A stretch of DNA of 64,000 bases, taken from the NCBI GenBank assembly GCA_051294905.1, contig CM119372.1, positions 14,820,001 to 14,884,000 of the forward strand, in the 5' to 3' direction. The position numbers and the translations under genes are program-made. The notes below the pieces were generated by a model that saw only the letters and a list, made by a program, of their open reading frames with translations, was not told the origin of the DNA and did not search any database. This DNA comes from Botryllus schlosseri. Its lineage: Eukaryota. This document shows, one piece after another, positions 13,522 to 60,388 of the stretch (position 1 is its first letter; each line of letters opens with the position of its first letter).

Positions 13522-13598
13522 GTTATGTAATACCTTGCATAACACTTAAATTTTAGATGCGACATTGTCGTTCATGTTTGGCTCATTGCCTATATATA
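13522..13598 (+). promoter_or_regulatory. Promoter of SOUL paralog A: inverted double D-box/CEBP-like site plus TATA
   Basis: GTTATGTAATACCTTGCATAAC at 13522-13543 (21/22 identical to the site upstream of paralog D); TATATATA at 13591-13598. Confidence 0.65.
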
Positions 13599-13697
13599 CC
13601 GTGCACTTTCAGCAGACAGTCAAAACAAGCTGATTGAATCGAACCAGACGGCAATCAAAGAAGAATTTCACTACGGCAAGAACTGCATCAAGTGACA

Positions 13698-14745
13698 ATG
13701 AATCTAGTAACAATTTCAACCGTCGTAGCCGTAGCGATAACCTGTCTCAGTGGCGACGTCGTCACAGCACAAGACTCGGTTTCCGATTACGGTCAAATTG
13801 AGATTGCACCCTATAAGACTGTCGAACGTTTCAATGAGGTAAGCTACATTTGGCGTTCTCCAGTCAGTGAGATGACGTGCTTACAACGCTGTCTTATTGT
13901 AGGACACCCCACGTTACGCTTACGAAGAGAGGATATACCCAGCTGCATGGTGGGTTGCGACAAAATCTAATAATGGCTTCAACCAACTTTTTTCCTACAT
14001 CAGCGGCATGAACGCGAATGGTAAAATCATATCTATCATTACTAACCAACAACGCTCAAGCGATATTTCTTTCTCTGTATAGGAACTAAAATTGCTATGA
14101 CGGCCCCTGTTTTGAACACGATTTCCCAGACTGAAAGCGGGTACTCTTCTGAAATGGCCTTCTATATTCCGAAGAAACATCAGGAAAACCCTCCTGAGCC
14201 AACAGGAGACGGTGTTACATTGAAAAAACTCTCACCCATGACTGTCTACGTGAGGTAAGTTGCTTTCCTGGTATATGTTCTACTCTACCTGACAGTCTGG
14301 ATGCCAATATAGCGATATATAAACTGAAACGTTAAACGAGATTAGATGATAATGACCAACTGCTCAGTGCTCACACTTGTCCGGCACCATTGAATTAACA
14401 TGTACTGACTACTGAGGTTCCAGTTAAATAATTTCCCAGGAGACGATGCATACATCAATTAATTCTAATGATAGTTCGATCTTTCATGTGGTTAAATGTG
14501 AGATATAAAAGTCGTTGTATTTTATTTGGGTCCTATCATAATTCCGTTTATTACACCGTTACAGAACGTACGGAGGCTGGTCGAACATCAAGGCAATTCA
14601 ATTTGAACTAAAAAGACTTGTCACATCCTTGAACAGAGATGAAAAGAAATTCCTTAAAGATGACGTGTATACAGCGGGCTACGATAGTCCTATGCGTTTC
14701 TTCAACAGAAGAAACGAAATATGGCTTCTCAAAGATCCTCAATGA
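13698..14745 (+). CDS. HEBP2: SOUL/HEBP-family heme-binding protein, paralog A, 203 aa, predicted signal peptide
   Basis: Exons 13698-13838, 13903-14020, 14083-14254, 14565-14745. All introns GT-AG; 612 nt open frame. SOUL motifs YEERIYP, GFNQLFSYISG-N, KIAMTAPV, MAFYIP, NPPEPT, VYVRTYGGW, AGYDSPMRFFNRRNEIW. Hydrophobic N-terminus MNLVTISTVVAVAITCLSGDVVTA. AATAAA at 14781. Symbol is family-level only. Confidence 0.93.
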
Positions 14746-15684
14746 AAAGGGATGCAATTTCGTTTACTTCGTTATCGTTGAATAAATTTTTACGAAAAAT
14801 ATTTACATTGTGTAGTTGTAGGAATTGTAGCACATCAGTAAGTATATTTATCATCGGGAAAATCGAAAATGGCTCTTAAAAAAAACTAGACATCATATTT
14901 GGACTGCGTCTCCGTGTTTGGCGAGGAGAACCTATAGACGCGTAGCACACTTCCCAGAGAGCTTCCAACACCTGATTGAATCATGGCTGCTGTGTTAGAG
15001 AGCAGTTATCTGACACACGGCGCGATGATAATATTAGCAGGGATACGGGTGGTCAAGTACACCTGGTTTTATGGAATGTTTGTTTGCTGAATCGCTGAGC
15101 ACATATTTTGACCTGGAAATATTACAGACCAGCATAACTCATAAACACCATCCAGCAATGGTCAGTAAGTAGGGATCATTGTACAAAATGCGGAGCCCTG
15201 ACGAATACAGGTGTAAGATAACGTAACGGTTAATCTACGATATCTCGAAATCGGATACTATTTCACGCCTAGAAATACTGTAAACCTCGATAAGTCGTAT
15301 CCCATCATACGGAACATGTAATACAAGGCTAAGTACGTTAGTGGAAATGACATATCTGGTAGTCGTGATCAACCCACAGCATTGTCACAAAGTGCAATGA
15401 AATAGATATGGCATGGAAATATACCAAATAATCCTTAATGTAATGTAGAACTGGCATTATAGTCTTTGTGGTCGCATAAGACGTATATATTTGCACTTAC
15501 CACACGTCATTCATACCGCCGTGACGCGATAATGAGTGATGCTGCATAACTCGACTCGAAACTAGGGATGGTGTGAACCTCTGAAAGGTTCAGGTTCGTG
15601 TGAACGCGAACGTTTTCGAAAGTTCGGTGTGAACGCGAACGTGAACCTCATGACGTCACGTAACGTCATATTGCCAATTCCAAC

Positions 15685-20425: not shown

Positions 20426-20610
20426 GCCTAATACAATACTCTATTCAAAATCGAACCACTCAGCTCAGGTACTCGGTTTAGCCCCTGGAGGCCCACTCTC
20501 AAGTCATAACTGTAAGTGGAGGGGTATAGAGCAAAAGACTCTATTCACACATGTTTTGATAATAGAAACGATTGTTGATATACGCTGTTCTTTCGAATTC
20601 TCTACTAGTT

Positions 20611-20654
20611 GCTGACGATTACCCCTGACGAGTGTCAGCCGAAAATATTCGGGT
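20611..20654 (+). ncRNA. Minimal type I hammerhead ribozyme (Penelope pLTR)
   Basis: ACCC-CTGACGA-G-TGTCAGC-C-GAAA-ATAT-TC-GGGT: stem I ACCC/GGGT, conserved core, 1-bp stem II, palindromic AATATT stem III, UUC cleavage triplet. Confidence 0.8.
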
Positions 20655-20751
20655 TCATTTTAATATGAATATACTATTCAATTGTATATTGAAGTTCTGT
20701 ACCTCAAAGAAGCTGTTCAGATAATAGAATAGTATATTCATATTGAAATGA

Positions 20752-20795
20752 ACCCGAATATTTTCGACTGACACTCGTCAGGGGTAATCGTCAGC
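20752..20795 (-). ncRNA. Minimal type I hammerhead ribozyme (Penelope pLTR, sense to the ORF)
   Basis: Minus strand reads GCTGACGATT-ACCC-CTGACGA-G-TGTCAGT-C-GAAA-ATAT-TC-GGGT. Confidence 0.8.
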
Positions 20796-21433
20796 AACTA
20801 GTATAGAGAATTGGAAAGAATTTGCAGTTAAAACAATCGTATCACAAAATATGACGTCACCAGCATGGAATGAAATCTCAAAGAAGAGAGATTTCAATGT
20901 ACTCTTTTAAGATGATACACCAACTCCTTCTGTAGACCGAGCTTGGTCTGATGTATTTTGATAAAGGTCGACTGCAAGGCACACAGATGAAAGTGTGAGC
21001 GACCCCTTCCGATGACGCGAAATCTGTCGTATCGATAATTATTTTCACAAGCGGGATTATCCAACAGATGTTTACGAATGGGAGATTTATGTCCTTTGAT
21101 CGCTCAGCATCAAGCTTGAGCTGATGAGCCAGGGGCGAGCTTTTCACCGAGCGTGATGCACGTGTTCTGATAAATCTAGGGACATGCTGGCTTATACGTT
21201 CCTGCAAACGCTTCAACGTTGTTCCAACGTAGCCACAATCACAGTGGCACTTATATTCGTACACTACATTACTTTGTTGAACTGCAGGAAGCACGTCTTT
21301 ACGTGTTGAAGTGAGCAGTTGCGTTGCCGTCAAAATCACATTAGTTTTCACTGTGTCATTCCATGCTGTGACGTCATATTTTGTGATACGATTGTTGATA
21401 TGCAATGTTATTTCCAATTCGCTACTAGTTACT

Positions 21434-21466
21434 ACCCTGACGAGTGTCAGCCGAAAAAATTCGGGT
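21434..21466 (+). ncRNA. Degenerate hammerhead ribozyme copy
   Basis: ACC-CTGACGA-G-TGTCAGC-C-GAAA-AAAT-TC-GGGT. Palindrome broken and upstream GCTGACG lost. Confidence 0.6.
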
Positions 21467-22794
21467 TCATTTCAATATTAATATGCTGCTCAATTGTATA
21501 TTCAAGTTCTGTACCTCCAAGAAGCTATTTTGACAATACGTCATACGACTTTACCATACTGGAACAGTCCCATAAACATTCAGGGGTGGGCAGACCCATT
21601 CCGTGTTCGAGGCGCATATTGCGAAACATAATGTTGCTACACAGCAAACCATCAAAAATACGGATTTAATCACTCGTAATGAATCACAGAATTTCACATT
21701 CCTTGTCGACACTACTGACTGAGAACACTGCAGCTAAACGCTCCAGAACGTATTGACCTGGTAGTATACGTCTCACGCACTTGAAAATACAATGTCCAAA
21801 ACAATAGTTTTAAAGGGGCACCAAGCTCTAAATATGATGTGGTCTCAAATTAAAGATGAAATTGGGAAAAACTGTTTGGCTGCAGCCATTTCCTACAGAA
21901 AGCCGCCGTCATGGAACTGCAGCTAAAAGTTAATTCAAGCTATCCGCATTTCACGCCAGCTGCATAAGCAAAATTTTCAATCCATGGCTGGAAAAATTGG
22001 AAACACCTGAAAGGTTCAGGTTCATGTAAACGCGAACCTTTTTGAAAGGTTCTGTGTAGGGATGGTGTGAACGTGAGTTTCACGTTCGCGTTCTGTGTGT
22101 GAACCTCAGAAATTTAGAGGTTCACGTTCACAAACGAACCTTAGTAGGTTCTGCACTGTGAACCTTTTTCATATATTACAATTTTCACTTCATTATAATG
22201 GCTTTGGTTGAAATTTATTGCGTTTTATCTTCGGGCCACTTTATGCATAGCGCTGGCAGCATAAAAAAGCAACATTAAACGAGCATGCACCCTTCTTGAC
22301 AATCTCAAAAATTTTACTTGCTTTGTTACAAAAGTTTGCTTGAAACATCAAGCTTTTCGTTTGTGAATATTTAATGACTCTCTGCTGTAAGCTTGACCCC
22401 AATCACACAACATCAAGAGCGAAATACACTACATGTAGTCAGCGAATGATGTTTATTGCTTATTCAACCAATCAATGAAATTGATATCGTTGTCTGATGT
22501 AAGAAATCTAGCAGGCGTACGGGTCAATCTTGGATTACCAGAGAACCCGGCCCTTGGAGAACCCGGCCCTACCAACTCGGCCCTCGGAGAACCCGGCCCT
22601 TGGAGAACCCGGCTCTCGACGAACTCGGCCCTCGGGAAATTTTGTATATCAAGCACGTGTGGTCTACTTGTTGTGGTATTCACGGTGTTTTTCGACTACT
22701 CTGGACCTCGGTGAATGCGGCCCTCGAACAATTTTGAATTAAAAATGCATTAAATGTGTACCCGGCCCTCGGGAAATTTTGTATTCACCGGCAA

Positions 22795-26052: not shown

Positions 26053-29000
26053 CTATTCAGCCAAAATCCAAACTTCGTTTCTGCGCCCCCAAAGGCGATA
26101 AGGGCTTTCGTATGCAGCAATGTAGAATTGGCCCTTTCTATAAGGCATCCCGTCTTTTTGGAGTAATCCTTCTAGCTTTTCCAGTTCATTCTTCTCTTTC
26201 CGTTCATTCGTCCAACCACTATAGGCACTGTAGAAAACAGCAGCAACCGTCGAGTCCTTATGATTTGATATGGAAATCGTAATGTTTTACGCATATTTTA
26301 CTAACGGAAAAAATTCCAAATCTTCGGTCTGTTAAGAGGAATTGCCTGGTATACCTACTGCTTGCCTAAAGGCAAAGTTCGAACTGCGTTTACCCAAAAA
26401 TAACCATTTAAGCAAACATCAAACATCAATAAATTACGATAATATTGGAATCTATATGCAGGTTGGAGATTATCGTCCCCTTACGAGCTAATAATAATAA
26501 TAACCTGGTGATGACCAGACATATAAGGCACCGTGGATCGAATGTCTCTCGAGTACGAGGGGGTATAGTTCGCTACTTGCAACGAAAATACGAGGAAAGC
26601 TAATAGTTGTGGTGTAAAAATTAGCAGTGAAGATCACAAATCCCGAGTTTATACCCTCAATAGCTTCCTACAACGATCTATTCTCTGGTAATGTTCACAA
26701 ATGATCAGTTTATGTCATATAGTCCTATATGTCATATTGCATTACCAATTACGGCTACAATTAATTGGATATGTTGTAATCGTCCTAACCGATTATAATA
26801 ATCAGAATGCACGAATATCCCCGAGGATGCATTTAAAACAAATGATGGTTTAAATAACTTTGTTTAAAACACGTTTAAAACTGTGTTTTAAACAAATTGT
26901 TTTCTTTTAAGGTGCATAATTATGCCATAAGTGTGCAAATACTTTTAAAAAATCACATTTTCTTTGAGCCTACGGCCGATTACCACCCGATATAGCCGAC
27001 CTATACGATACGGGATGGTTGGAACCTCGAAATAGTCAGTTCTATAGCTATAGTACGTATATATAGATCGGTACGGAAGGTATGTTCTGATGATGGTGAC
27101 CGCCGAGCGTAAAAATGCTGCATGACGATGTAGTCCTGGTTAAAGATGGAGCTATATTTACCCTATATTTTCAATTGTCAATGTCAATCCGCTATGACGT
27201 CACAAATAAATACCCTAATTATCCCATGTCTGAATCGTACCGTGAATAATTTTTCCACTTACAAATTATTAAAAAAAAATTGCATCATATGGTAACCATG
27301 AACTAGTTCCATAGAGTTAGATGTCTTGTTCTCAAGGCCATATAGTTTAACAAACCTAGTGTACGTACATGTACTGTATATATCATTGTAGTATACGCGT
27401 TTACAATGTACATACGGTGATTGAATCAAGAACTTCGCATAACCTGGCGTTTACAATGTACATTGTACATACAGTGATGGAATCAAGAACTTCGGATAAC
27501 CTGGCATAGATGCGCATTCCTGGTGTCGTCGATAGATATACATCTGAGTTGGTTGGCCGAGGAGGTTTATCGTGAAATTGTTTCGGCGTGTAGAACGACA
27601 TTTCATGTTTATTGTCGCGACTTGTCGGTTTATCCTCCACACCGTCGTATGACATCAATACAGGTACTGTCATACTGATATTTGCATCTAAACAGAAATG
27701 GTTATGGGCTTCTGGTATTCTGAAATTAACTGGTATCGTTTTATAGTAACATATTTATGTCCATGTTGCTAGTAATCGAAGAGTCCGATCAGTGTGTGGC
27801 GCCGACTTTTACTTTTGCATGGGGTGGCGGCAGGCGCGTAGCCAGGGGTGTCGGAACCCCCTCCTTTTGAAACGCAAAACCCCGTCCTTTTGAAATGACC
27901 ATTCTGACGCTAATATTCAGTTGCAATTCAACAAGTCGTATTATCAGTGTTACGCGGGACCGCGTCCAATTAGCGAGACTCGTCTGTGCACGCATATCGC
28001 ATCGCAACACGATCGCAACACGTAACGCGACACGATCTCCCGCTGATATGGTTGCGAAATTTGGTCATTCATTGCCGCGTGCTCGGCATTCGTCGCTGGA
28101 CTGAGCAGTAACACGGCGCGACAATTCTGGTCTGGAACACGAAAGACAGACAAGAAATATGATTGGCGCGGCCAATCAGTAATTATCCCTTACCGCCAAC
28201 ACAATGGGTTTTTACTTAGTATTGAGTAGCTCGCATCACGACAGTTGGTTGCTGATTAAAACATCGATTTTGACTGCATTGCTGCATTTCCCGATTTACG
28301 TGCGCAAAGCATAATTGGATTAATATTATATTATGGCCACTGGAATAAATTCCAACTAGCAGGCACACACAACAAAACACTGTTCAACTTTGCGCTCCGA
28401 GAATATTTATCACAAAAATGGTTCACAAAATATTTTAAACGCGGCTTGCGCCCCTCATCGATGCAAATCATGCACTTTAATTTGTAGAAGGTGAACGTGT
28501 ATTTGGTCGTCAAATCGCGATAGGAAATGGTGTTTCTCAGAACGCGCGATGAAATCTACGTTTCTAACGATGAGGTCGAATTTGTACATCTAATAAGGAT
28601 CGTTAGTTTGCTGAAATCAGCATCAGTACGCCATGCGAAATACATAGTAGTGAATAATTTTATCGGACTGTACAATCGGCCGGCAAGGTTGCGCTGATAA
28701 CGAAATTGCAGACATGCCGCAAACCTGCAATAATTACAATTACAGGGTGCGCCCGTCATACCCAAATACCCCGATTCGGCAATGGCAACAAGCACAATTT
28801 GTTCAGACGCGGGCATAAGTTTTAATCAAAAAGATACATAAATACAAACAATATAACACTCAGAGATTGTTACTGTTTGGCGAAAGTGTTTCTGCGGACG
28901 GTAGCAGTATAGAAATTAAACTATAGTAGCAGGCCTGCCTGCGGATGCGCTAAATCAAACCAACAACGATAGTGCACATGAGATATCGATGGCCCATTTC

Positions 29001-45480: not shown

Positions 45481-45523
45481 CTTATGTAATCGAAAACTCT
45501 GTCAAGCGTGACGATGATGTAAT
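45481..45523. promoter_or_regulatory. D-box-like and CEBP/ATF-like sites upstream of SOUL paralog C
   Basis: CTTATGTAAT at 45481-45490 and ATGATGTAAT at 45514-45523, 90-130 bp upstream of the ATG at 45392. Confidence 0.4.
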
Positions 45524-48298
45524 CTGATGAGCTACCACGTAGCAGGCTAGCAGCTGCGTGTCTGCAAATTAAGCTCGTGTTATTGTTGCTTTGATTAGCG
45601 GATTGCTGCTCGGTTGAAAATGAGCGATAGCCTAGCACGCAGCAGTCGATCTGCATACACAAACACACACTTATTTTTCATTAGTTACGGTTTATCAAAT
45701 CATCTCAATTACTCAGATCACAATGCTGCGGTACATTGAAAAGATAGGAAAGTTCAGAATCTGACATCATAGACTAGCTGCGTCACGCCTATGCTCAGGC
45801 CGTGTTATTTTTGGCGGTTCGGGAACCAAATGTCAAAACTGCCAAAAATAAAAATTGTAAAATGACAAAAATAAGCTAGTTTTGGTATTTTTGGCATGTA
45901 CCAAAATATAGATTTTTATGAACAAGTCAACAAGTATCGAAATGAGTCTGCATGAAGCGACAAAACAAGTGTATAACGCTAAATTCCCGAATTGAGGCCC
46001 ATGAACCCTTCGGAAAGCCGCGGTCTACCGTCCAAGAGATCTAATGAGAATGAGAATCTTAGCGTCAACGCAAAATAGTCGAGTACTGAAATCTAGATTT
46101 ACGATATACTGTTGCTTGATCAGCCCGGGTAGTAAATGATATCGCCCCAAAAGTAGACTACTTTATATTGATTTACGAAAAACGGGGAGGGGCATGGCCT
46201 CTTTCGCACCATCCTTAGCTACGGCAATGGCGTGCACAGTCATGCAAAGTTAAATATTTCAAAGTTAATGCATGAATTCGATAATAATGGTAGTTTTTGC
46301 ATAAGGCATATATTGCACATACGTGATCATATGTACTGATAGAGCTTATGGAAGTGGTGTCGAAGAAAAATTTAGAGCACCCATGCGGCATGCTATATTC
46401 ATTATTCGTGCGTTTCTGACGAGTTATCTTGGAGTGGGTTCATTGTGCTATTGTACCAAATAGTCATGTCCTTGTAATCTGAGCCGCGACCTGCAGAGGA
46501 AAATATTGCATACTCTTAGCGAAAAGAGTGTGTATTCACACCAAAAGGATGGTACACGCCAGCAGAACCTAATCAGAATTATATCCCGGTTTTACTCGGC
46601 ATACCTTCCCACGTTTCTACGTGCAAGCATCATTTGGATTAAAATATTGTTTGATTTATACCGTAGTGTAAGTCTGAGATAGCTTCCGGTTCCGTGTACC
46701 GCGGGTGTGAATTCACACCCGTGTACCAACGCCAGTTATATACGTGTGCAATATTTTCCTCCGCTGGTCGCGGGTCGGGGCACATTGATTGCAAGGACAG
46801 GAGTATTTGTTGCCGTCACCACACCTTAGGCGGATAAAAGCCACACCTTAGGCGGACAAAACCCTGCAGCCCATTGATATCGCAGTGAAGGAGTATATAT
46901 AGCATCAGGGCCGTAACTGACGCACCCCGAACCCCCAATTGGGGGGGTGCGAGCTCGAAGGGGGCCCAAAATTATTTCATGAATTAGCATAAGTTATGGA
47001 GTACTTCTTTAAAAATTTATGCAACTTTTTCAATTTTCTTTCGCGCTGTGCGCGTTTAAATATTGACAAATATATGGGTACCCTTCCCCCAACAAAAATA
47101 CGCATGATTTATAGAAATGAGCACTTGGGTGTCGGCGATTACCGCGCCATGACGCACCAAAGACATATGAAGTTATAGGCCTTGTAACATGCGACTCCGA
47201 GAAGTGTGCAAGAACGATCAACAGCGAGAAGACCTTGGCCGAAAAGGACTGTCCTTGTGCGGACCGAAAATTTCGATATAGATACAATACATATATGTTT
47301 ACTTAGGTGCCTAAATGGCTGGCGCCGAATGTTCCTGTCCTGGCGATCGGAACCCCAGACTACAAATGAAATCCCGCAGGAAAAAATTATTAGCCAGTAA
47401 AGAAACATCAATTTGTGAGCAATTTGTGGCTTCGCTTCGCACGTTTAGGCACCACCACCTAGCTCCCTAAACAGTACACTCAATGTCGATGATAAGCATT
47501 GGCTAAATGCGAATATCCTGAGTGGGGTCGGTTTATCACCCTATGGCGAGGTCAAGACCAACGTTTTTGTGGGGGGCTGACGAAGTGCTGTTTCGGTCCT
47601 GTAGCATTATGATACTCGCACCTCGGATGCAATCCACCCGAGTTACAACTCCTTGTTCAAAGTAGCTTTTTCGTGGTTCCGCAACCCGGTCACTAGAATT
47701 AGGCGGTAAGCAGGAATCATATCATCAAGATTGTATTTTCTTGTACGTTTACGCTGAAATCGGAGCAAATTGTGCACTCCGCGGCAGGCGCCTGGTGCGT
47801 GACCAAGATAAAATCGATAAGCCTCACGTTCGATGAAAATCAGCAGGCAATTATTATGTAATCCTCATTCCTGGTGCCAAGTCGAGGTCACACGACAATC
47901 TGCATATGCAGATTCTACGTTGTTAAAAAAAAGAGATTGAATTTTATAAACAGCAGCATCGACGTTGGCAATTTGCTGCTAACAACACCTGTCCAGGCGA
48001 ATTAGAAACGATTACTAGAGCTTACTCATCACATCTAGTCACAAGTTGATGCCTTTTCATATTGTATTACATAAATGGAGCTAAATGCGACCATCACGTT
48101 TGATATTATTGCATATAGCCCGGGCTGGCATGCTATACTGATTTATAAGATTTGTTCCCGTTTCTAATTTGGTTGTCTACTTTGTCTTATTTAACAATTA
48201 TAAAACTTATTTTTTCGTGTCATAAGATTTTTGTAGACCATCTATAATATTGCAAATTTGATATTTCTTTTTCGGCTGGATAACACAGGGTTCATGAG

Positions 48299-50258
48299 CA
48301 GGCCTGTTTATTTTTGGATTTCTCCAAAAATAACAAAAATAGCTTAGTTTTGGATGTTTTCAAGTTTTATTTTTGGAGAATCTCCAAAATTAAGAAATGA
48401 AGCTGTTTTTATCCCTAATACTACTAGAAAACTTCACCGAAAGTTAGTTATTATCATATATTCATGTCCTTCAACACATCGACATCATCAGTGCTCTTGA
48501 TCTAACTTATCAATGCTTTCGTCACAAAGTCTTTGCCCTGGAGAATGGCCTCCAAAATCAGTGACAGACGCCCGGTAAAGACCCTTCTCCCACTTGATGT
48601 TCGTGAAATCGGCTTCGACCGTCGCAGTTGGGGAAACATCGACCAGTAGGGGTCCAAAGAACTGTCGGATGGCTTCAAACTCTTCAATGTTCCAAGTCGT
48701 TGTTCCTGACAAGCGCTGGTCAATAATGCGCTTGGAAGTGACGTCCATTTTGCATCGGAAAGACATGGACTGGAATTGGTCTTCGATATTCTGTAGCTAC
48801 TTGGGTGTCCACTTGTTCGACAGCCGACCCCGGTGTTTGTGGATCAATTCACGGAGCCGCAAATAAAGTAGCCTGTTGTTTATATTATTAGAATCAAAAA
48901 GAGCAAGAACTGTTTGTTGTGTCCTCTCACCTAGGGCCAACGAGGTTGAACCACTTGGTGTGATAGACAGGGCACGACCCTTTCAATATCGGCAACTTCA
49001 ATTTTCTTTATGCCGTTGATGAGCCATGCAATAAGGCTCCCGGCTCTATCGAACGTGGGCTGTGTTTCCTCTTCGTCGATATTCTCGAGAAGGTCGCGAG
49101 GACTCAACACCCCAATCCTCCACGAAGTTGCGTGCCTCAGTGAACTTAGGATTACCATACGTCCTCTTTTTTGACTTTTTTGAAAGTGTCCTCGGAGGAC
49201 GCCCAAATGTCCTCTTTTTTGAGATTTTGTCCTGTTTTTTTAGGATTTCGGTTAAATAGAGGGTAAAATCCGACTGAGATACAGTAAATCAGCTCTGACG
49301 TGACGCTGCTGCGGCGGCTATTTTGGGAGCGGAGCTGGAAATTGGACCTTTTTTTAGTCAACCGACCACGAAGTGGGAAAAATTATCATTTTTACGAAAT
49401 TTACATCTGGTATCGCAAGTTTGAAAATTTTGAAAAAGTGTCCTCTTTCCAGATTTCCAAAATATGGTAACTCCGAATGTACTTGATAGCCCAGCACCCT
49501 CTGACCAGAAAATCGTCCTTGCCGCGAGTGTTATTGTCCCAGTCCTCAGCTGTGCACCGAGCTCGAACGCGTTCGACCATGCGATGTAGCTCCTGCTGCT
49601 CCACGATCAGAAATTCAATAAGTCCCTGAAGCTTCGTGACGGTAGTGCTCAGGTCTGTGGCCATGCGATCGAGCACGATTAGTTGGATCCACCACTGCGA
49701 CGAAGGTGCACAGGCCGGAATTTTCTCGTTCATAACCTCGATTAGCATGATACCGTGTCCATTCAACCAAGTGCTCACGTTCATAATTGACCACCAACGG
49801 GTGTCAACAAACTTGGGCTTGGGGCGCGTACTTTTCATCTCCCGGATCAAGTTCTGTTGCCATCTGAGGTGGCCATTCAATCCCATTGTCGTGTGAACGA
49901 ATAGATTCTTGCAGAGCTGGCGGTATAAGGCCTTCGCCACAAGGTCCAGTGGTGTAACCCGCACCGCACTCGCACAATTTCATACCCGGTCGCCTGTTCA
50001 ACCCTTGTGGCCACGCTTCTGATCCATCCATTAGGTGGAAGTACTTTTAGCGCTTCGGAAACCCCCTCTCACACAAACATGCGGTTTTTGTGAGTTTCCT
50101 GGTTGTTTCGACAGTATTTACGCTGCTCTGACTCGTTTATTTCACTAAGTAACTTGTAAAAACATCATCCAGAAAAAGCTTAATTTTGGATGTTTTCAAA
50201 TCTTATTTTTGGAGAATCTCCAAAAATAAAACCCAATATCCAAAAATAAACAGGCCTG
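48299..50258 (-). mobile_element. Decayed hAT-like transposon with frameshifted transposase fragments
   Basis: TIR CAGGCCTGTTTATTTTTGGA; TSD TTCATGAG. Fragments LIREMKSTRPKPKFVDTRWWSI.. (49401-49964) and SPTATVEADFTNIKWEKGLYRASVTDF/LEAILQGKDF (48488-48766). Nested MITE at about 49148-49475. Confidence 0.82.
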
Positions 50259-50786
50259 TTCATGAGTCTTAAAATAATTTGGGATGATCTAAGACCCTTC
50301 TCTGGCAATATGTGAACTTTGTAGCCTACATCGACAATCTAATCTAACGGGTGGTAAATATGTTTCAATGGCATACTATTCGAGATGTGGGCGAATAGCA
50401 TAGGCTATTCAAAAAGGCATCTGAACCGCGATTGAGTTCGCAGCGGTTTGCCATCTTGAGATCCACTTGAATGTTTTCGTGTTTTTCGCGTGTCTGCGGG
50501 AATGAATCATCGATATACGAAATAGCGTTGCGATCGGCGCAAGATATTTGGCCCGGTGCAGAGTGCGGACAGATTTCGCTATGAGATTATGTAATTGCTA
50601 GGATGCTGACATTGCATAAGAGACAGATTTTCACAACAATGGATGATGTTATATAATGATTCTGGATTGTAATCTCATATAGTTATGTAATTCGCAGAAT
50701 AAAAAAAGGCAGCAAAGCCTTTCATTTTCTGTTTCCATTTGAAGAAGTTTTGACATGTCTTCAAAATTGGTACATGTACCTGTAAT

Positions 50787-52026
50787 CAGAGGTGGTCAAA
50801 GTAGTCAAGAAAGCTACTCAAGTAGAAGTAGAAGTACTTCTTCCATAAGCAACCTAAAACTACTTGAAGTAGAAGTGGAATTGACTGACTTTAAATCTAC
50901 TCAAGTAAATAAGTAGTTGTGAAAACGATGGTAATTCGTTCACATGGATTGTCAAAAGCTGCAAATTGAGCTATGTGAAAGGTATCGAGCTTTATTCATA
51001 TTGATGCATACCAGGAGGTATCCAATTTTCGACAGCATAAGCATTCGTCCGCATCATGGGATGAAAATGATAGTATTGATATGTAAATGCGATAATAATC
51101 CTATGTTTACACGATCAGCACGTTTTAGAAAACATCATGGTATGGCACTCTCCCCCGTATTATAAGGCCCGTAGTTTGATCGAAGAGCAATACGGAGAAG
51201 TTGTATTGGATACGGTGTAAACACTTTGTGCAATTAGTAAACTTAAATGAAAAATATGGTGGACCGTAAAAATGCCATATTGTGTAGCTTTATTTCCGGA
51301 AATTAAAGGCATCACTACACTTGCTTTTATACTTCAACATGTATGTTATCCAGACGAAAGAACTGATATTAATTAGAACTCAAAGTATTTGCTACTGGTA
51401 ATTTGAAGTGAAATATAAATACTAATTCTAAAAGCGGAACATGTATTTTATGTCTTTAGTCCGGAATGTTTCGAAGGTTGGTATGCTAAAACAGCTCTAA
51501 AACTAAAAAAAGTCAGAGTCCACTTTTCCAGATTAGGACACGCCATGAACCGCTAGATTACGATTTGATAAGTAAATGCTGGATTGCCAAACATCAGTTT
51601 CAAACGTTATGATGAGCCATATATACTGTGATGAAATATTTGATATGGCGAAGGGTGACAATGTGGTGTGGACAGAACCACTCAACCCGCTACCTAAACT
51701 ATATTCACCGATACTTTCGTGAAATTATACTGGTTACTCCGTATCCAGTGCGCACGAAAATTCTGGGCTTTACTCAACTTTTATGAAAATTAAATGTTGG
51801 TACTCCGTGAAAACAGCCCGGAAATTCCTCAGGCTATCTTCCTGATTGGAGTATTAAACTACTTCTACTTGACAAACTGAAAATAGCGAAAGTAAGTAAG
51901 CAGATCACAAAATATTACGAAGAAGAAGTAGCGAAAATCAGATCTACTTGAGTAAGTACCAGAAGTAGAGGAAAACTACTTGAGTACTTCGAAAAAGTAG
52001 AAGTACTTCGTTACTGACCCCCTCTG
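50787..52026. mobile_element. Family B element, uninterrupted reference copy (1240 bp)
   Basis: TIR CAGAGGTGGTCA / TGACCCCTCTG; TSD CCTGTAAT. Confidence 0.88.
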
Positions 52027-52411
52027 CCTGTAATTGAGTAGACATTGACGACGGTATTTCTACTTCTACTTGAGTTGAGTAGAAACACGCTTTTCTACTT
52101 TGACCATCTCTGGTTGTAGCAGTTATGCATATTCGTTTCTATTGGAAAATACCTTACATTAAGACTTAGTACTGACATCTTGCGGTTGTCATGCGAGTAA
52201 CGTACACAGATCACCGATGATGGGAATCCCGATCAGCAGCCGTAGCCGAACGAGGTTTTATCGATGTTCAGATCCATATATCCGTAGCATAATTGTTCAT
52301 ATATATAGATAGACAGATGAATTTTCTCGTCACACCCAGGAACAAGAAGAGAACTAATGTCACCAACCAACCAACCTACCGTCCCATATCCGTTCTCCCA
52401 TGCATCGGGAA

Positions 52412-52545
52412 CCGAGCGAGATAGTGTAATGGTTAAGCGTCCGGCTTCTCGAGCGGTAGGTCGTGGGTTCGATCATACCAAAGACTCGAAAAATGGTATC
52501 CGCAGCTATCCTGCTAGGCGGTTAGCAATCACGGATAGCATGGAG
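52412..52545 (+). mobile_element. Second tRNA-derived SINE head with a conserved central domain
   Basis: A box TAGTGTAATGG, B box GGTTCGATC, followed by CATACCAAAGACT..AAAAATGGTA..GCT..CCTGCT.GGCG..AGCA. 3' boundary uncertain. Confidence 0.6.
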
Positions 52546-52689
52546 GAGAAAAAAAACGGGGGCGCAGACTAGATGACCTCATGGGGCCGTATCGCAACTC
52601 CGTCGTCAAAGCATCTCGATGGTGCAGGCGAAAAAGAATATCATATCTCTCTCTCGGGGTTGTATTCGAAAAGTTGCTCCTCTCCCGCC

Positions 52690-52883
52690 CAATGTTCCCT
52701 TTAATTTTTGACGAGTCTGCGCACACTCACCAACTCACTGCGCAGACCCTTGGACAAGAGTGCGTAACGACTAAAAAAAGGGTCATCACTTCGGTTTTTT
52801 TCTGCGCAACCTAGATATTCTGTGCGCAGAGACCGTGTCATCACTGCGTATTTTCGCACGTGCGCAGCTTAGAGGGAACACTG
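52690..52883. mobile_element. 194-bp hAT-type MITE (same family as 17293-17486)
   Basis: TIR CAATGTTCCCT / AGGGAACACTG; TSD CTCCCGCC. Confidence 0.88.
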
Positions 52884-52911
52884 CTCCCGCCTATCCTCAT
52901 TCCTCGCCAAA

Positions 52912-54936
52912 ATGTCTGTCGTTTCCCCTCAACAATTTGGCTTCCGAAACAAACACCAAACCTCACATGCCCTCTTTAGAGTGGCTGGGCAGTATTATGA
53001 TATCTCAGAGAAGCGAAATGTGGGATGTAGCATTTTTCTCGATCTAAAAAAAGCGTTTGACTGCGTAGATCATAAAATTCTCATCTCGAAATTGTCGCGT
53101 TACGGATTTCGGGGCCCACAACTTGAGCTCATGAAAAGTTACCTCACTGGACGCCAACAAATGGTTGCAATCTCAAACATTTTTCTAGGGCTCGGGAGGA
53201 ACCGCAGTAAACCTCCCCCCGAAACGCTTGTGACAGTACTGTGGGTATTGCACCTCAGCACGGCGTCACAAGCGCCGTAATAGGATCCTTTGTGTTGTAG
53301 GAAACAAAGCTCCCATCTCGGTTGCTTCAAACGTTTCTACCTTTTTCTTCTGTTTCAAGGTACAAACGGCTGGCACAAGCAAGTTTTGAAAGGAGGCGTC
53401 TGCGGCCACTGATCCCTTTCGCCGCCATACTTGTGCCCCGGGATACTGGCCCGTCGATGCGGCCTCAGATCCCGGTTCGACTATGAAGGCCTGGCGGCCA
53501 TACTCGTCCTGGGCACGGGTAGTAGTAGTGATTGGACAGTAATGGTTGTACCGCTAGGGTTTCGCATCCCCCAACGTCCAGGGAGGAGATGCTTACCGTA
53601 ATACAACCAAATACTCCAATCACTACTACTACCCAGGACGAATATGGCCGCAATCTCAAACACCTTGTCCTCTCCTCACCCAGTGACCTGTGGTGTACCC
53701 CAAGGCTCAGTACTTGGACCGGTCCTCTTCACCTTATATGTCAACGACATTTTTGAAACCTCCTCATTGAACACCACGGTGTTCGCTGATGATACTCACC
53801 TCCTCTGTTCCGCATCTTCGACGGCAGAGCAGGATGCCCTGACCAGTGACCAAATGCCCAAAGTGCATGAGTGGATGGCCCAAAATAACCTTTGCATAAA
53901 CGCCTTGAAATCCCAATTGCTGACAGGAAATTCAAAAAAATAACCTAGCCGTTAACATCGCTGGTCAGCCCGTTTCCAACACAGAAAATGCCAAATATCT
54001 CGGGGTTTTACTGGACTCAGACATGTCCTGGAAGAGTCATATTCAGTCGCTAGACGCTAAATTATCACCAAGTGCGGCCTGTTCTACAGCCTTAGACGCT
54101 CCATGTCATCCTGGGTTCTTCTGATACTCTTTAAAATCCCTAATCCAATCAAAATTACAATATGGCATCCTCTGTTGGGGGGGGGGCTGTCAGTAAAACT
54201 GCACTCGGGCCACTGCAAAAACTATAAAATAATGTACTCCCGATCATAGCTAGGGACCCGAAGGGGCCTGGTTGTCCATTGTCCATCCAACAAGTTGCTG
54301 CTGAAAAGATTCGGTGTCCTAAACATAGAAGATATGCGGAAACTAGAAATCGCCAAGTTTATGTATCAGTTCCACTGCGGTCATTGCCCCGAATATTCCA
54401 ATGACTTCTTTACCTCGGAAGCAAAAGCGCAAAAGTACAACACACGCGCGTCCACGTCGTCCAAATATCGTATGATCGACCGAAAAGATCATCCCTCTAT
54501 CAAATATGCCGGACCTGATGTGTGGAACAGTATCCCGCCGGCCATCCCACAGTCGACGAGCATGTCCATTGTCCACATTCAAGTCGAAATACGAGCAATT
54601 ACTACAAAATAAATACTATAGTCCATCCTCAAAATTACCGGACCACGACCTGACCTATCGATCATTTTATCATGAGCTGTCCTTCACATTAATTTCATAG
54701 AACGTTCCTGCGTTATGCTTGTGTTTGTATGAACATTCCATTTCGCCTCGTGAACTTACTAACGGATTCAAGCATTTTGAAATACGTTGTAGAATATGTG
54801 CTGAGTTGTTATCGATTTATTTGAATTGTCGCCTTAGAAAATTGAGTAATGTCGTGGCGCAGAAGACCTAACGATGATAGGCGCCACTCCTTTTCTTCTT
54901 CCAACAAATAAATAAATAAATAAATAAATAAATAAA
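52912..54936 (+). mobile_element. 5'-truncated non-LTR retrotransposon (CR1/L2-group LINE), reverse transcriptase pseudogene
   Basis: QFGFR, IFLDLKKAFDCVDHKIL..KL..YG.RG, CGVPQGSVLGPVLFTLYVND, FADDT, KYLGV. Stops and frameshifts present; (TAAA)n tail at about 54905-54936; interrupted at 53180-53649. Confidence 0.9.
53180..53649 (-). other. 470-bp highly structured insertion of unknown identity inside the LINE RT
   Basis: 13-bp TSD GCAATCTCAAACA (53167-53179, 53650-53662); the RT frame rejoins when it is removed. Short T-run at the left end (A-tail on the minus strand); multiple stem-loops. Confidence 0.75.
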
Positions 54937-55454
54937 TGTGTCCATTGTCATGCGCCAAAATGACGGCGCCCCATAGTCCTATTCTAGTAGATTGGCCCTG
55001 CTGAACAAAAGCGACCTGCAGAGGAAAACATTTCATTTCATGAAGAAATGCGGATTTGGGATCACATGAGTCATCTCATTAAATGAGTTTTTCTGTTAGT
55101 TTGGTCGAGTTGGTCTACTATAGTGAGTGATTCTAATATCTGTTGAGTATAGCGACGAATTTTACCGAAGGTCACGAAATAACAATTTGCTTCAACTAAG
55201 TACTATGAACGCACTCGTCCCACCCGAAGCCATCTCGCGAGATCTCCGTGAACAATTGACCAATGATTTATTGCCTATATGTGCATTACTGAGTCTTCTG
55301 AAAATAGATGAAGTGGTATTTGTGCGGCCCGCGAAAGCCTCAAGAAACGTTGTAAAAATTGAGAAAATGCGTACAAAAATCAAATTACTGTGGGTACTTG
55401 ATTAAACCTTTTCTTAATATCTTTCAACAGGATAATGATCAGTAATATTCTTAC

Positions 55455-56441
55455 CAGTACGGTAACTGCCGCACCACAAACCCCCAATTGAGGGGGGGCA
55501 AGCTCGAAGGGGGTCCAAAATTATTTATTGATATAACATAAATTATAAAGTATTTTTTTTAGAAATTTATGCAACTTTTTCATACATTTTTCGCGCCGTG
55601 CGATATTTCATGTTGTCAAATTATTGAATATTGGGTACCCTTCCCCAACAAAAAAATACGCATCATTTATAGAAATGGGCACTTCGGCGTCGGCCATTAT
55701 CGCGCCACGACGCACCAAGACATATAACGTTATAGGCTATGTAGCAATGTAATATGCGACTCCGAGAAGTGTGCCAGAACGATCAGCAGCGAGAAGACCT
55801 TGACCGAAAAGGACTGTCCTTATTCTGACCGAAAACTTCGAGATATATACATATATGTTTAATTGTCCATAAGCGCCTAAATGGCTGGCGCCGAATGTTC
55901 CTGTCCTGGCGATCTGAGCCCACAAGACAGATGCCATCTCTAGGGAACATTATTTGCCAGTAAAGAAATTCCAATTTGAAATCGTGTACGTCTTTTAGTT
56001 AAGTACGTTTGGGCGGTTGCAATATCTTTTTACATAGCGGATAGGAGGTCACGAAATAGCACCATGCAACGAAGTTATTATACCAACGGGTACGCCCGAA
56101 GATGTTTATATTATTTAGGGGTTCTACCTTTTCCAATAATCCTCACACAGCTCTACCGGTGCATCTGATTACGTGGGCAGAGAGAGGATAAAAATGATAG
56201 CAATATGTATGCAATTCCCGATCATATTGACCGATTCAATCATGAATTACAGAAATTTTTCGCGCTTCGCGCGTTAGGTAGAGACAAGCACTTAAATAAC
56301 ACCTGCTGTAGATGACAACTAGGGGCAAACAGCTCATAGCATGAGGGGGAGGGACGCAGCCCCCGGAAGTTCGGTTTATCACCTTGTGGGGGGCATAGGA
56401 CAAACTTGGGGGGGAGCTGACGAAGTGCTGTTACGATCCTG
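55455..56441. mobile_element. hAT-type element family G (other copies about 16067-16760, 38420-39065, 46906-47601)
   Basis: TSD ATTCTTAC (55447-55454, 56442-56449); shared internal GAGCTCGAAGGGG.CCAAAA and terminal CTGACGAAGTGCTGTT..G.TCCTG. Confidence 0.8.
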
Positions 56442-57262
56442 ATTCTTACCATAGTATTTTTTATTCCATTGATGGCGCGATAGCCCGATCTCGACGCCCA
56501 TGTATTTGGCAAGGTTTCAATTGCTCACAGAAAGTGAAAGTAAATGACTTAATTCGGACCGCGAGTGTGATAGATTGGCAACACGAGCGAGCAAGTGTAT
56601 TATTTTTAGTGCTGTACTTGGAAAAACCGATTTGCGAGTGTGTTCGATAGATTCGTTCTTTGTATGAGGAGAAGTATTGTAGAAGCGTCTTTAAAGGTAA
56701 CATGATGGTTATGATGCTGTTAGCATTGTGTGTCCTGGAGTTGGACCAAAAGTACCATCAGCACAGCATATCTGTGAACAGATCGCTGCTCACAGACTCA
56801 ATTTTACATATCCAGTTCTAAGACTCGGGACAACAGACTTTCATATCTAATTTTGACCATGGGGACGACCAGCTTATAAATTCTCGTCAATGTTTCTAAC
56901 GCGTATACGGCATCATCAAATCAAAGTTTTGTTTGTTTTGAATGTACAAATACATATACAGTATTTCCATGTCGTCGGTCATTATATAATCAAATAACAA
57001 TATTGGATTTTAGCTTAATATCCCAATTTTATATTGTGCGTCCCGCGAATGGATACAAATGTTCAATGCCCACCCCTGCTATAGAATATAGACATCATAG
57101 TTGTAGCTTCAAGGTTAAAATGGTTCTATTACTCGTCTATCAAAAAGTAACTAAGAGAACAAGCGAAGCGATTATAATCAGCAGCAATGCTTTCAGGCAT
57201 TCTTGAGCACGTAACTTTTAGACGCGTTGCCCCCGGCTCCACAATAAAACTCGCTGAAATCT

Positions 57263-57325
57263 GTTATGTAATACGTTGCATAACGTACAAAGTTTGGATA
57301 TTTTACGATCACAGATGCTATATAT
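57263..57325 (+). promoter_or_regulatory. Promoter of SOUL paralog D: inverted double D-box/CEBP-like site plus TATA
   Basis: GTTATGTAATACGTTGCATAAC at 57263-57284; TATATAT at 57319-57325. Confidence 0.65.
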
Positions 57326-57406
57326 TTCGGGCATCCACTTCAAAAATTCAGATCGGATTTTAACGTTACGTTAGCACACTCCTTTTCGCAAGACATCACC
57401 ATCAAT

Positions 57407-60388
57407 ATGAAGTTTTTACTGGTTTCTGTGGAGTTAACATTTGTCATCATCATTTGCGCGTTACGCAAATTCGATGTTACGGCGCAAACTTATGTCACCA
57501 AATATGGAAGATCCGATAGTCCGCCTTACCAGGAAATCGGGACATTTTATGAGGTAAAATATTGATAACTTTTATGATCGACTACACCCAGCCACCCACG
57601 TAGCTATACCATGAAGCTTGTAATACGTGATGATTTTCCGATTATAGGGATATCCTGATTACACATACGAAGAAAGGATATACGACTCCGCCTATTGGAT
57701 AACTACACAATCAGCATCTGGTTTCAACATCCTTTTCCAGTATATAAGCGGCAGAAATGTAAAACGTAAGTTAGACGATAAGGACTAGTATTAACAGTTC
57801 ATTAATACATATGTTTCTATTTTGTCTCTCCAGAGAAGAAAATTCCTATGACTTCGCCAGTTTTAACTACCGTTTCATCATTTACATATTATAATGCACC
57901 TGAAATGGCATTCTACCTGCCACCCAACCATCAAAACAATCCACCGTCTCCAACTGACTGGCGGGCCAAATTGAAAAAATTCCCTTCGATGACCGTTTAC
58001 GTCAGGAGGTAAGCATTATGCTCCATGATATTCCTATATCTCATTCTAACTCTCAGACAACGATACATCGTGATAAAACTGCATAGTGCACAGTTGTGAC
58101 GAGGAGATGAAATTAATTTTGACTATAGGTGACCTGTCTTATATATTATCTTCTTTTACGTTTCATTCAGTGTGCATATGCCTTCTTTTTACATCGTCTA
58201 GGACAGGTCGGTGTCTGACTTCAAAGACTACTCCAAGTCGTTTCGACACCGCTTCCTATACTTTCATTGTATCGCAGTCTTGTGGTGTATTGAAATGATG
58301 AAATTGTTAATAATATATTTAATTGAATTGAATTATATATTTGCCCAAAGTTGGTATAAAGTCACTCAGCCCATTGCAGTTTGTGAACCGAGCAGTAGGT
58401 CAGGAGTCGTCTAACTATAGCCCATCTATCTATGCCTGTCGGGTATAGCTAAAATGATATACGACCTAAGTACCAGGCAAGTAAATTGAAACTTGATACC
58501 GTTATTGGCCATCAACTAAGGACTGTACAATAGGGCTGTTCAAAAGTAACTTTTTTTCACGGATTCCTGCCATTCACTTATTAATTTGTCAGGTTACCCT
58601 AAAAAACGCTGCACACCAAATTTGGTTCAATTCTAACAAGTAGAGGACTCCGCAGATCCAATTAAAATTTTTAATTTATTAGGTAAAATTATTTTTTTTT
58701 AATTTCAAATTTTTTTTGCCAACCCCATGAAATTGTTGAGCTGTCTTCAAAGACGATGCAAAACATATTTGAGTCAATTCCGACCAGTAGAAGCGGAGTT
58801 ATGTGAGTTTTTCGTTGATAATTCTTGGATTATCCACCGATCACGGACGGAGTGAATGGCTGGACTCCAGGGGAAAAGTTATTTTTGAACAGCCCTACTG
58901 TACAACAGTGTACACTGCACAGTGCGCTGCAGGGGTCTCGATATCCTCCAATCAGCTCATTACATAGTATTGTGCGTACATTATAGTGTCTCGAACTGAT
59001 GAAGGTATTACCCGTGACCAACATGTAAGGCAGGAACGGGCAACATACGGCTCGCTGGCCGGATCCGGCCCGCGAAGGGATTTTGTCCGGCCCGCGGACA
59101 GTTTTCCGTCTTACATGATAATGTGACCCGCGACCCCAGTCTGCCTAGATTCCCCACTACTTGCTTAGTACGTCAAATTTTAGTGACTGTATGTTATCAT
59201 ATACGTGTACTGTATGCGCACTGCGCAGTGATACGAGAGTGGAGCTACGCGTAAGTTCGTTGAAGCGAGAAGACTTGCATTATCTGTGGCGAGATACCGT
59301 AGTGGTATAATCCACTGCTACAACACCAATGGGTTGTGGGTTCGTGTCCGAGCGAGGTCGACTCCAGAATTCCAACCTAAGTGTTGGAGGTTTATCTAGG
59401 CTCCTCCTCGCCATCTCATCCGCGTAAGCGGTGTCTTACGAAAAGCCTAGAAGTGGGCCGTGCTACAAGTCGGCAGATACGGAATCAAAAACAAGGAATA
59501 TCGGCCTGGTGTAAATGACTATAGTAATCAACAAACACCATGAATACCACAAGCAACAACAACTTGCATTATCGGTAGTTACGATATACTCACTCAACCC
59601 TAATGTCGTTTGTGGTAATCGCGGTGTTAGTCGACTACAATGGTCATTTACACCAGGCTGATATTTCTTATCTTTGATTCAGTAACCGCCGACTTGTGGC
59701 ACGGCACATTTCTATAGGCTTTTGTAAGACACCGCTTATGCCATGGGTCGCCAACACAAAACGGGTCGCGGACCACTTTTCAAATTTCGTAGAGGACGCG
59801 GGCAATCGGGCATGCAGTCAATATCGAGATTAATTAGGCCACACAGTTGAACAACGACGCTATCTCGTCACCTACTTAACCTTAATGAATTGATATCTTG
59901 GTAAATTTGAGGTACCGGGCTTATTGAACGCCTTGAAATCCTAATTAAAGATTGCACCGTGTGTTGATTGATCAGATAGAAGCAGACATGGCGGCGCCTG
60001 TATGACAATGCTATTCTCAAATCCACATGTCTTCGTCATTATCGGCGAGAAATGGCATTCAAGTGACATTGCTTCCTTGTATATGTGGGTAAACGGGCGA
60101 ATAATGTATCGATTCAGCAATCCAGCCGCCAAGTGCTTCATTTTCCTATATCCGGCCCGCCGACTGGAGAAGTTGCCCGCCCCTGATGTAAGGTTTTATT
60201 CACACAGGCGATACGACGGTTGGGGTAGATATGCATCTGTCCAGAGTGAACTCTCCAAACTCAAAAGAAGTGTGACATTCGACAAGAAAAAATTTGTTTC
60301 ATCTATGTATGCCACAGCAGGATATGATGGGCCGAGGCATTCTGGACCTCGGCGATATGAAGTATGGCTTTTTGCTGAAGAAAAGTGA
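57407..60388 (+). CDS. HEBP2: SOUL/HEBP-family heme-binding protein, paralog D, 206 aa, predicted signal peptide
   Basis: Exons 57407-57553, 57648-57765, 57834-58008, 60208-60388; GT-AG introns; 621 nt open frame. Motifs YEERIYD, GFNILFQYISGRN, KIPMTSPV, MAFYLP, NPPSPT, YDGW, AGYDGP..RRYEVW. N-terminus MKFLLVSVELTFVIIICAL...VTAQ. Confidence 0.9.
58531..58897. mobile_element. MITE in intron 3 of paralog D
   Basis: TIR TAGGGCTGTTCAAAA; 8-bp TSD CTGTACAA. Confidence 0.85.
59031..60185. mobile_element. hAT Buster/Charlie-like MITE in intron 3 of paralog D, containing a SINE (59285-59561) and an inverted partial SINE
   Basis: TIR CAGG..CGGGCAAC / GTTGCCCGCCCCTG; TSD ATGTAAGG (59023-59030, 60186-60193). 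SINE TSD ACTTGCATTATC. Confidence 0.85.

Follow-up and report, generated by a model that had tools for sequence, protein, structure and literature searches.

What is a cluster of four SOUL-family genes doing in the genome of the ascidian Botryllus schlosseri, and what might turn it on? In physiological terms, what SOUL proteins do is described as still unsettled (PMC7140478). The stretch of DNA analysed here (the window; 64,000 nucleotides) carries, between positions 13522 and 60388, four intact four-exon SOUL (PF04832) genes, called A to D, in the order + - - +. By analogy with fish relatives, they are likely to form an ordinary paralogue cluster under bZIP control that responds to light or ROS. 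The gene models are as follows.

13698-13838, 13903-14020, 14083-14254, 14565-14745, + strand: exons of SOUL gene A, 203 aa
37581-37516, 37370-37241, 27687-27501, 26227-26053, - strand: exons of SOUL gene B, 185 aa
45392-45327, 45262-45133, 44618-44432, 43031-42857, - strand: exons of SOUL gene C, 185 aa
57407-57553, 57648-57765, 57834-58008, 60208-60388, + strand: exons of SOUL gene D, 206 aa

Every one of the 12 introns is GT-AG, the phases are 0, 1 and 2, intron 2 of gene B spans 9553 nt, and internal stops are absent from all four frames. In gene B, a duplicated splice donor is present at 27444. Together with the PF04832 matches, this bears out the four intact genes and the + - - + arrangement given in a preliminary description of this DNA, whose exon lengths (118/181 nt for exons 2 and 4 of A and D; 66/130/187/175 nt for the exons of B and C) were reproduced. 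That description also claimed identical intron positions and phases. The phases hold, as do introns 2 and 3, each of which occupies one alignment column across A-D (96; 158, but 159 in D). Intron 1 lies at column 50 in A and D versus 53 in B and C, within a gappy stretch, so that its positional equivalence is only approximate. Three introns in phases 0/1/2 are, we take it, also present in human HEBP2. No fifth SOUL gene or pseudogene was found among 2976 six-frame segments of the window, and about 33% of the cluster span recurs elsewhere in it.

PF04832 is matched by all 12 exons numbered 2-4 (E 1.8e-5 to 2.2e-14), which tile profile positions 14-172 of 173; a search with the four first exons gave no match to it. 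In every gene, one exon or more scores above 27 bits by itself, passing the curated PF04832 cut-off; exon 4 of D alone scores 26.8 bits. A SOUL fold, an eight-stranded sheet accompanied by two helices, is supported for the predicted proteins by sequence matches to HEBP2 and HEBP1 structures. Among solved structures, those of human HEBP2/SOUL (3R8J, 4AYZ, 5GQQ) are the best matches to A exon 3, to C exon 4 and to the family profile. A and C retain the C-terminal GYDSP and R-x-N/H-E motifs; B departs from them slightly, and they are changed in D, the most divergent of the four copies. Its GYDGP form occurs in 1 of the 138 homologues with a match at the motif, and GYDSP in 123.

Purifying selection, which had been proposed for these genes, is evident from a dN/dS of about 0.09 for B/C (pN/pS 0.21; 95% bootstrap 0.15-0.29); pN/pS for A/D is 0.50, with saturated synonymous sites (pS 0.77). 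The tree contains two supported pairs, A+D and B+C, best explained as two old paralogue pairs. A local expansion from one ancestor, as first supposed, is unsupported as stated: A-D are monophyletic in 36% of bootstrap trees, though the AU test does not reject their monophyly (p 0.44). The free tree places B/C outside a supported clade of 21 HEBP2 and mollusc rows (96/88), and the AU test does not reject B/C within the cytosolic HEBP2 clade (p 0.28); the branches are long. Among the matches listed, HEBP2 of fish or amphibians comes closest, with 35-45% identity, and no tunicate-named row occurs among the best 120 of 531 and the best 120 of 549 profile matches. Single exons recovered little: a homologue search with A exon 4 gave one candidate and no match, a metagenome scan with C exon 3 gave four weak loci (32-39% identity), and an Atlas search with D exon 1 gave no usable match. 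Fortunato et al. 2016 reportedly treat SOUL evolution across eukaryotes and may already cover signal-peptide SOULs and tunicate copies.

The 6 junctions tested, those of genes C and D, are all confirmed by spliced reads. Each is crossed by 29-52 raw RNA reads in run X22 and is also present in contigs of X4 and X1. At the 5' end of gene C, six X22 molecules stop at 45436, while contigs extend to 45450 (X1) and 45486 (X4); for gene D, an X1 transcript contig starts at 57364. Junction reads for C and D change in step, numbering 112 and 136 in X22 versus 2 and 0 in X24, two bulk RNA runs of one study, X22 having 1.75 times more letters read than X24. Contig depths are not parallel: X1 has 25.5 for C and 24.6 for D, X4 has 83-100 for C and 8.7 for D. 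Word shares of 0.6-0.7 of X1-X4 on gene A were discounted as expression evidence, since X4 also has intronic contigs.

The feature that points to a mode of control lies upstream. A D-box core (TTATGTAA) precedes all four ATGs, at about -175 (A), -127 (B), -97 (C) and -143 (D). The upstream elements are listed below.

13522-13543, + strand: double bZIP site of A, a canonical D-box with a half-degenerate copy behind it in inverted orientation
13591-13598, + strand: TATA-like element of A, of presumed function, aligned with that of D
37700-37709, + strand: canonical D-box of B, upstream of the B ATG
45482-45523, + strand: upstream sites of C, the core, one mismatch short of the 10-mer, at 45482-45489, and at 45514-45523 a G-variant D-box
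50586-50691, + strand: D-box cluster between the divergent C and D, two canonical and one half-degenerate, in window-unique sequence; possibly a distal element
57263-57284, + strand: double bZIP site of D, 21/22 bases identical to that of A
57319-57326, + strand: TATA-like element of D, aligned with that of A

The preliminary description began the locus at 13522, the first base of the upstream D-box of A; the ATG of A is at 13698.

The RTTAYGTAAY-type 10-mer is exact in A, B and D, and C has the core plus the G-variant. A random 200-nt stretch of the remaining window has the core with a probability of 0.023-0.031. Its presence in four of four promoters has a probability of about 5e-4 to 9e-4 when the two pairs are counted as two independent draws, with the qualification that the motif was seen by eye before testing and that the background is repeat-rich, non-promoter DNA of the same window. 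The window has eight copies of the canonical 10-mer where 1.94 +/- 1.75 would be expected, a number reached in 1 of 100 shuffles; three of the eight are proximal and three more lie between C and D. The 8-mer core shows no window-wide enrichment (13 against 8.1 +/- 3.3; 10 of 100 shuffles as high). The proximal sites lie outside window-internal repeats.

The upstream regions of A and D align with a score of 50, while none of 500 shuffles exceeds 39, and their double site and TATA box are kept despite the saturation of synonymous sites between the two genes. Those of B and C show no such alignment, their score being reached by 136 of 500 shuffles. A scan for the canonical E-box, CACGTG, found none within 300 nt of the ATG of any of the four genes.

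Since the D-box motif lies upstream of all four, induction by light or oxidative stress is likely, as in the zebrafish relatives. There, light and H2O2 induce both hebp2 and soul5, mutation of the D- and E-boxes of hebp2 weakens its response, and the response requires D- and E-boxes jointly (PMC12561580). In Nematostella and Acropora, a SOUL gene has its maximum in daytime (PMC4476465). By analogy to these two genes, PAR-bZIP factors would likely read the upstream D-boxes of A-D, and light or oxidative stress would switch the cluster on. The likely task of the products would then be to bind a hydrophobic photosensitiser, for example a porphyrin, and neutralise it, a step suggested by the family name and disputed for HEBP2. 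We tentatively favour this whole chain, a D-box/PAR-bZIP-driven, light/ROS-induced paralogue cluster whose proteins neutralise a photosensitiser, while doubting that every link of it will hold.

Alternatively, these may be functional bZIP sites through which factors of the C/EBP, NFIL3 or ATF4 type exert cell-type, developmental or immune control, with the proteins acting through protein partners or a non-heme ligand. C/EBP-type factors accept such half-sites, and the second half-site of the A/D element presumably fits C/EBP-type binding as well. The near absence of C and D transcripts from one RNA run and their clear presence in another fit tissue or stage specificity equally well, and the lack of CACGTG near A-D points the same way. 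In the Ciona embryo, Hebp-r.a is a marker of one cell type, the tail-tip cells, where a reporter is expressed from about 0.8 kb of its upstream DNA (bioRxiv 10.1101/2023.05.24.542044); the lack of haemin binding by HEBP2 in one study (PMC3174058) would suit a non-heme role. We nevertheless find control unrelated to light rather unlikely, given that three of the four proximal sites are the exact canonical D-box 10-mer quoted in PMC12561580, where the zebrafish SOUL genes are both D-box and light-regulated.

The proteins themselves appear to fall into two kinds.

13698-13769, + strand: predicted signal peptide of A, 24 codons, ending V-T-A before Q, hydropathy 2.47
57407-57484, + strand: predicted signal peptide of D, 26 codons, hydropathy 2.60
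37582-37650, - strand: possible N-terminal extension of B, 23 in-frame codons from an upstream ATG; a weak lead

The best 11-residue Kyte-Doolittle mean reaches 2.47 in A and 2.60 in D, versus 0.39 and -0.24 in B and C, in agreement with the hydrophobic N-termini, ending V-T-A before Q, that had been ascribed to A and D alone. Residues at -3 and -1 govern signal-peptide cleavage sites. Both A and D have V-x-A before Q, no second hydrophobic segment and no KDEL-type end. The predicted peptide of D is less canonical than that of A, with Glu inside its hydrophobic core and Arg-Lys after it, and could alternatively be a signal anchor. Hydropathy thus predicts that A and D are secreted and B and C intracellular. 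The candidate extension of B is presequence-like (net charge +6, no acidic residue); the same basicity is reached by 17 of 708 random open ATG stretches.

Such a split is nothing special. By the same crude hydropathy measure, 38 of 146 full-length homologues, including those of amphioxus, sea cucumber and crab, have a hydrophobic N-terminus, and secreted SOULs are therefore ordinary. The F/Y/I-C-x(3-5)-D/E/Q-C-P motif found in 14 of these 38 is absent from all four of A-D. What is new is that all four genes have upstream D-boxes, the secreted/intracellular split being already common in the SOUL family.

Would these proteins bind a tetrapyrrole? HEBP1 and HEBP2 had been called established cytosolic tetrapyrrole binders, which is half right: HEBP1 and several plant SOULs bind tetrapyrroles (PMC6739868, PMC3467301), whereas one study found no haemin interaction of human HEBP2 by UV-vis or NMR (PMC3174058). 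The plant SOUL AtHBP3 is likewise reported not to bind hemin-agarose (PMC3467301), so that SOUL family membership does not fix the ligand. A-D lie nearer to HEBP2 than to HEBP1 (profile E 1e-46 versus 8e-34). The histidine that HEBP2 carries in the first strand motif, between its R and its Y, is missing from all four: A, B, C and D have I, A, E and I in this column. It is also absent from the aligned fish and amphibian HEBP2 rows examined. This histidine, at position 42, is reported as haem ligand in mouse SOUL.

The role originally proposed for the cluster was a locally expanded scavenging of dietary chlorophyll derivatives or free heme, with A and D working in gut or blood and B and C acting as a buffer in cells. 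The secreted-type A/D and intracellular-type B/C would suit it, as would the tetrapyrrole binding of HEBP1 and several plant SOULs. We consider it improbable, in view of the closeness to HEBP2, the low bootstrap share of trees that unite A-D, and the behaviour of AtHBP3 on hemin-agarose. It is equally improbable that the D-boxes are clock-output elements giving a daily rhythm without acute light/ROS induction, or that some (B, C) are chance: mammalian D-boxes do direct clock-controlled rhythms (PMC8097283, PMC12561580), SOUL transcripts cycle daily in the two cnidarians named above (PMC4476465), and the B and C sites lack alignable flanks, but the preservation of the A/D footprint goes beyond chance (0 of 500 shuffles) and zebrafish hebp2 and soul5 have no rhythm in constant darkness (PMC12561580).

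Light/ROS induction through D-boxes thus remains our preferred reading. A bolder form of it would see an ancient D-box-to-SOUL response to sunlight and ROS shared by ascidians and fish, and a co-induced photosensitiser-scavenging battery in three compartments, with A and D secreted, C cytosolic and B mitochondrial via its upstream in-frame start. This extension we judge unlikely; if true, it would make the inverted double D-box of A/D a natural and compact element for light responses in an invertebrate chordate. With its 22-bp conserved promoter element, the cluster is an easy place to test whether SOUL genes were under D-box light/ROS control before vertebrates arose; the compact arrangement of secreted and intracellular copies makes it easy, too, to ask if the secreted forms are porphyrin binders. 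Should the connection to light not hold, the cluster would be one of ordinary paralogues, of annotation value only.

How does the cluster compare with known systems? In the literature searched, SOUL/hebp2 was linked with D-boxes and light in zebrafish only, and no published link of D-box/PAR-bZIP to ascidians was found. Like the zebrafish hebp2 and soul5 promoters, A-D are SOUL-family genes with D-box motifs close upstream. The zebrafish promoters have three D-boxes and an E-box, tested by mutation, whereas A-D have one or two sites and no CACGTG, read from sequence; the inverted double D-box of A/D is a further difference. Ciona Hebp-r.a (KY21.Chr10.215), compared by description, is likewise an ascidian HEBP-related gene, and its '.a' suffix suggests paralogues. 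It is known as a tail-tip marker, and the available part of its description does not mention secretion, D-boxes or light. Plant SOUL clade 5 has been assigned to secretory pathways (PMC3467301). The signal-peptide SOULs of Branchiostoma (P0162), Apostichopus (P0172), Scylla (P0176) and Eriocheir (P0038) share with A and D the hydrophobic N-terminus and the single SOUL domain. In contrast to the two-cysteine homologues, mature A and D have no cysteine, like crustacean-type forms such as P0176, and relative to vertebrate HEBP2/SOUL they have an additional signal-peptide-like N-terminus.

The most useful feature of the locus, absent from the preliminary description, is a D-box-type motif upstream of every one of its four SOUL-family genes, here called A to D.

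Gene models, from sequence
13698-14745, plus strand: gene A, 203 aa, predicted secreted pair
37581-26053, minus strand: gene B, 185 aa, predicted intracellular pair
45392-42857, minus strand: gene C, 185 aa, predicted intracellular pair
57407-60388, plus strand: gene D, 206 aa, predicted secreted pair

The D-box sequence TTATGTAA lies upstream of all four ATGs, at -175 in A, -127 in B, -97 in C and -143 in D. The canonical 10-mer, as given in PMC12561580, is matched upstream of A, B and D; upstream of C the core is accompanied by a G-variant. The core is expected by chance in 0.023-0.031 of random 200-nt stretches of the remaining window, the background used here rather than other promoters. 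The joint chance is ~5e-4 to 9e-4, counting the two pairs as independent draws and for a motif noticed before it was tested. Window-wide, the 8-mer core is not enriched (10 of 100 shuffles are as high). A and D have in common a 22-bp double site, that is, a D-box with an inverted, half-degenerate copy (21 positions identical), with a TATA-like box downstream, and the local alignment of their upstream regions outscores 500 of 500 shuffles. The D transcript contig begins 45 nt past the start of the TATA-like box. In C, read ends cluster 46 nt away from the core site; the C contig of RNA set X4, which extends into the C site, counts against this picture. The upstream sites of B and C have no alignable flanks. 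Further D-box matches occur in window-unique sequence separating C from D, which lie head to head (47853-48074 and 50586-50691). The 50586 site is followed by the same second half-site as in A and D, with a spacer of 17 nt instead of 4 nt.

The four genes and their anatomy, as first described, are borne out: each of the 12 introns has GT-AG ends, the phases run 0, 1, 2 in every gene, and no stop codon interrupts any of the four models. The common intron positions hold for introns 2 and 3, which occupy the same alignment columns throughout, but intron 1 is offset by three columns between the pairs, inside a gappy stretch. The Pfam SOUL domain (PF04832) is matched by all exons numbered 2-4 (12/12), and none of the four first exons has any Pfam match. 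When 2976 six-frame segments of the window were scanned with a profile, no fifth copy was detected beyond these 12 exons. In B, a second copy of the exon 3 end, donor included, follows 57 nt downstream (27402-27505, minus strand); the second donor, after 27444, would insert 19 in-frame residues if used.

Purifying selection, already proposed from the intact frames, is supported by the B/C comparison (dN 0.155, dS 1.72, ratio 0.09); between A and D synonymous sites are saturated (pS 0.77; pN/pS 0.50; Nei-Gojobori counts throughout). Protein identity is 45% for A-D, 75% for B-C and 32-41% between pairs. D is the fast copy, with a terminal branch of 1.27 versus 0.22 for A; its C-terminal family motifs are altered, yet the gene is intact and spliced. 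The pairs A+D (100/99) and B+C (100/100) are firm in a 51-row tree. A single clade of four is not rejected (AU test, p 0.44), nor is placement of B/C within the cytosolic HEBP2 clade (p 0.28), both in a 29-row subset lacking some long branches and the majority of fish rows. The closest solved structures are human HEBP2, then HEBP1, and no row named as tunicate appears among the best 120 of either of two profile searches. Tandem multi-SOUL proteins are common among the homologues (P0001-P0008, P0010 and P0042, for example), with 2 to 8 matched stretches and up to 3105 aa.

A and D each carry a single hydrophobic segment, N-terminal and ending V-T-A before Q (hydropathy 2.47 and 2.60), which by the same measure is absent from B and C. 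The proposed secreted and cytosolic pairs survive as predictions, but such a split is ordinary in the SOUL family: this crude measure assigns a hydrophobic N-terminus to 38 of the 146 homologues that are full-length (165-300 aa, beginning with Met; 190 fetched). About 8 of the 38 resemble vertebrate HEBP2 models whose start is odd or extended upstream; amphioxus, sea cucumber and two crabs are among the remainder. One plant SOUL clade is likewise assigned to secretory pathways (PMC3467301). Because the D segment has a glutamate within its core and Arg-Lys behind it, it is possibly a signal anchor rather than a cleaved signal peptide. In B, three upstream ATGs fall in 37582-37689, their presence in mRNA depending on the start site.

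Upstream ATGs of B
-108, minus strand: in frame, stopped 3 codons on
-94, minus strand: out of frame, short uORF
-69, minus strand: in frame, open

The last, 69 nt upstream, would lengthen B by 23 residues, none of them acidic and with a net charge of +6, a basicity reached by 17 of 708 random open stretches and noticed before counting. We treat this predicted extension, dependent on transcript start, as a lead only.

RNA reads were compared over 42600-60700, that is, genes C and D. Of the 12 predicted junctions, all six of C and D are found in raw reads of bulk run X22 (29-52 reads per junction) and in contig sets X4 and X1; those of A and B stand as predictions. Junction reads are plentiful in X22 (C 112, D 136) and near absent in X24 (C 2, D 0), a run of the same study with 1.75 times fewer letters read. 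Expression of C and D, judged from these two samples of unstated condition, is therefore condition- or tissue-dependent. The C:D ratio by contig depth is inconsistent (~1 in X1, ~10 in X4). Many RNA reads match only 52415-52475, the tRNA-like head of a probable SINE, and then diverge from the window.

About one third of the cluster span has repeats elsewhere within the window. By eye, 52873-54612 holds broken frames of reverse-transcriptase-like (LINE) type, split by other insertions. Decayed DNA-transposase-like frames lie at 10000-10600 and at 48330-50250, the latter between inverted repeats 48336-48393 and 50173-50229. A 197-codon open frame at 20560-21530 (minus strand), between direct repeats, resembles by eye the end of a GIY-YIG/Penelope-type endonuclease.

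The most likely reading, held tentatively, is that under light or ROS PAR-bZIP factors would bind the D-boxes of the cluster and induce both secreted and intracellular SOULs, which would then bind a hydrophobic photosensitiser. Light and H2O2 induce zebrafish hebp2 and soul5, and promoter fragments confer the induction (PMC12561580); one SOUL gene has its maxima by day in two cnidarians (PMC4476465); D-boxes have been proposed as ancestrally sunlight-responsive (PMC8097283). No published account of D-boxes with PAR-bZIP in ascidians was found, in a search lying mostly outside subscription journals. Somewhat less probable is that bZIP factors of cell-type or immune control act on the cluster and that the ligand is a different one; a Ciona Hebp-related gene that marks tail-tip cells favours cell-type control (bioRxiv 10.1101/2023.05.24.542044).

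As to the ligand, HEBP1 is described as a binder of protoporphyrin IX and heme (PMC6739868), but the tetrapyrrole binding also ascribed to HEBP2 is disputed for the human protein, reported to show no haemin interaction in UV-vis, NMR or crystal soaking, in contradiction to an earlier mouse report (PMC3174058). Hemin-agarose binding was absent in one of four plant SOULs tested (PMC3467301), and the HEBP2 histidine is missing at the matching column in all of A-D. For these reasons porphyrin handling is plausible but unproven. Scavenging of heme or dietary compounds, the initial proposal, we consider unlikely, and clock output or chance sites equally so.

Against induction by light or ROS through D-boxes, the motifs of the cluster stand with no CACGTG E-box near A-D, whereas the zebrafish hebp2 response requires both D- and E-boxes (PMC12561580).
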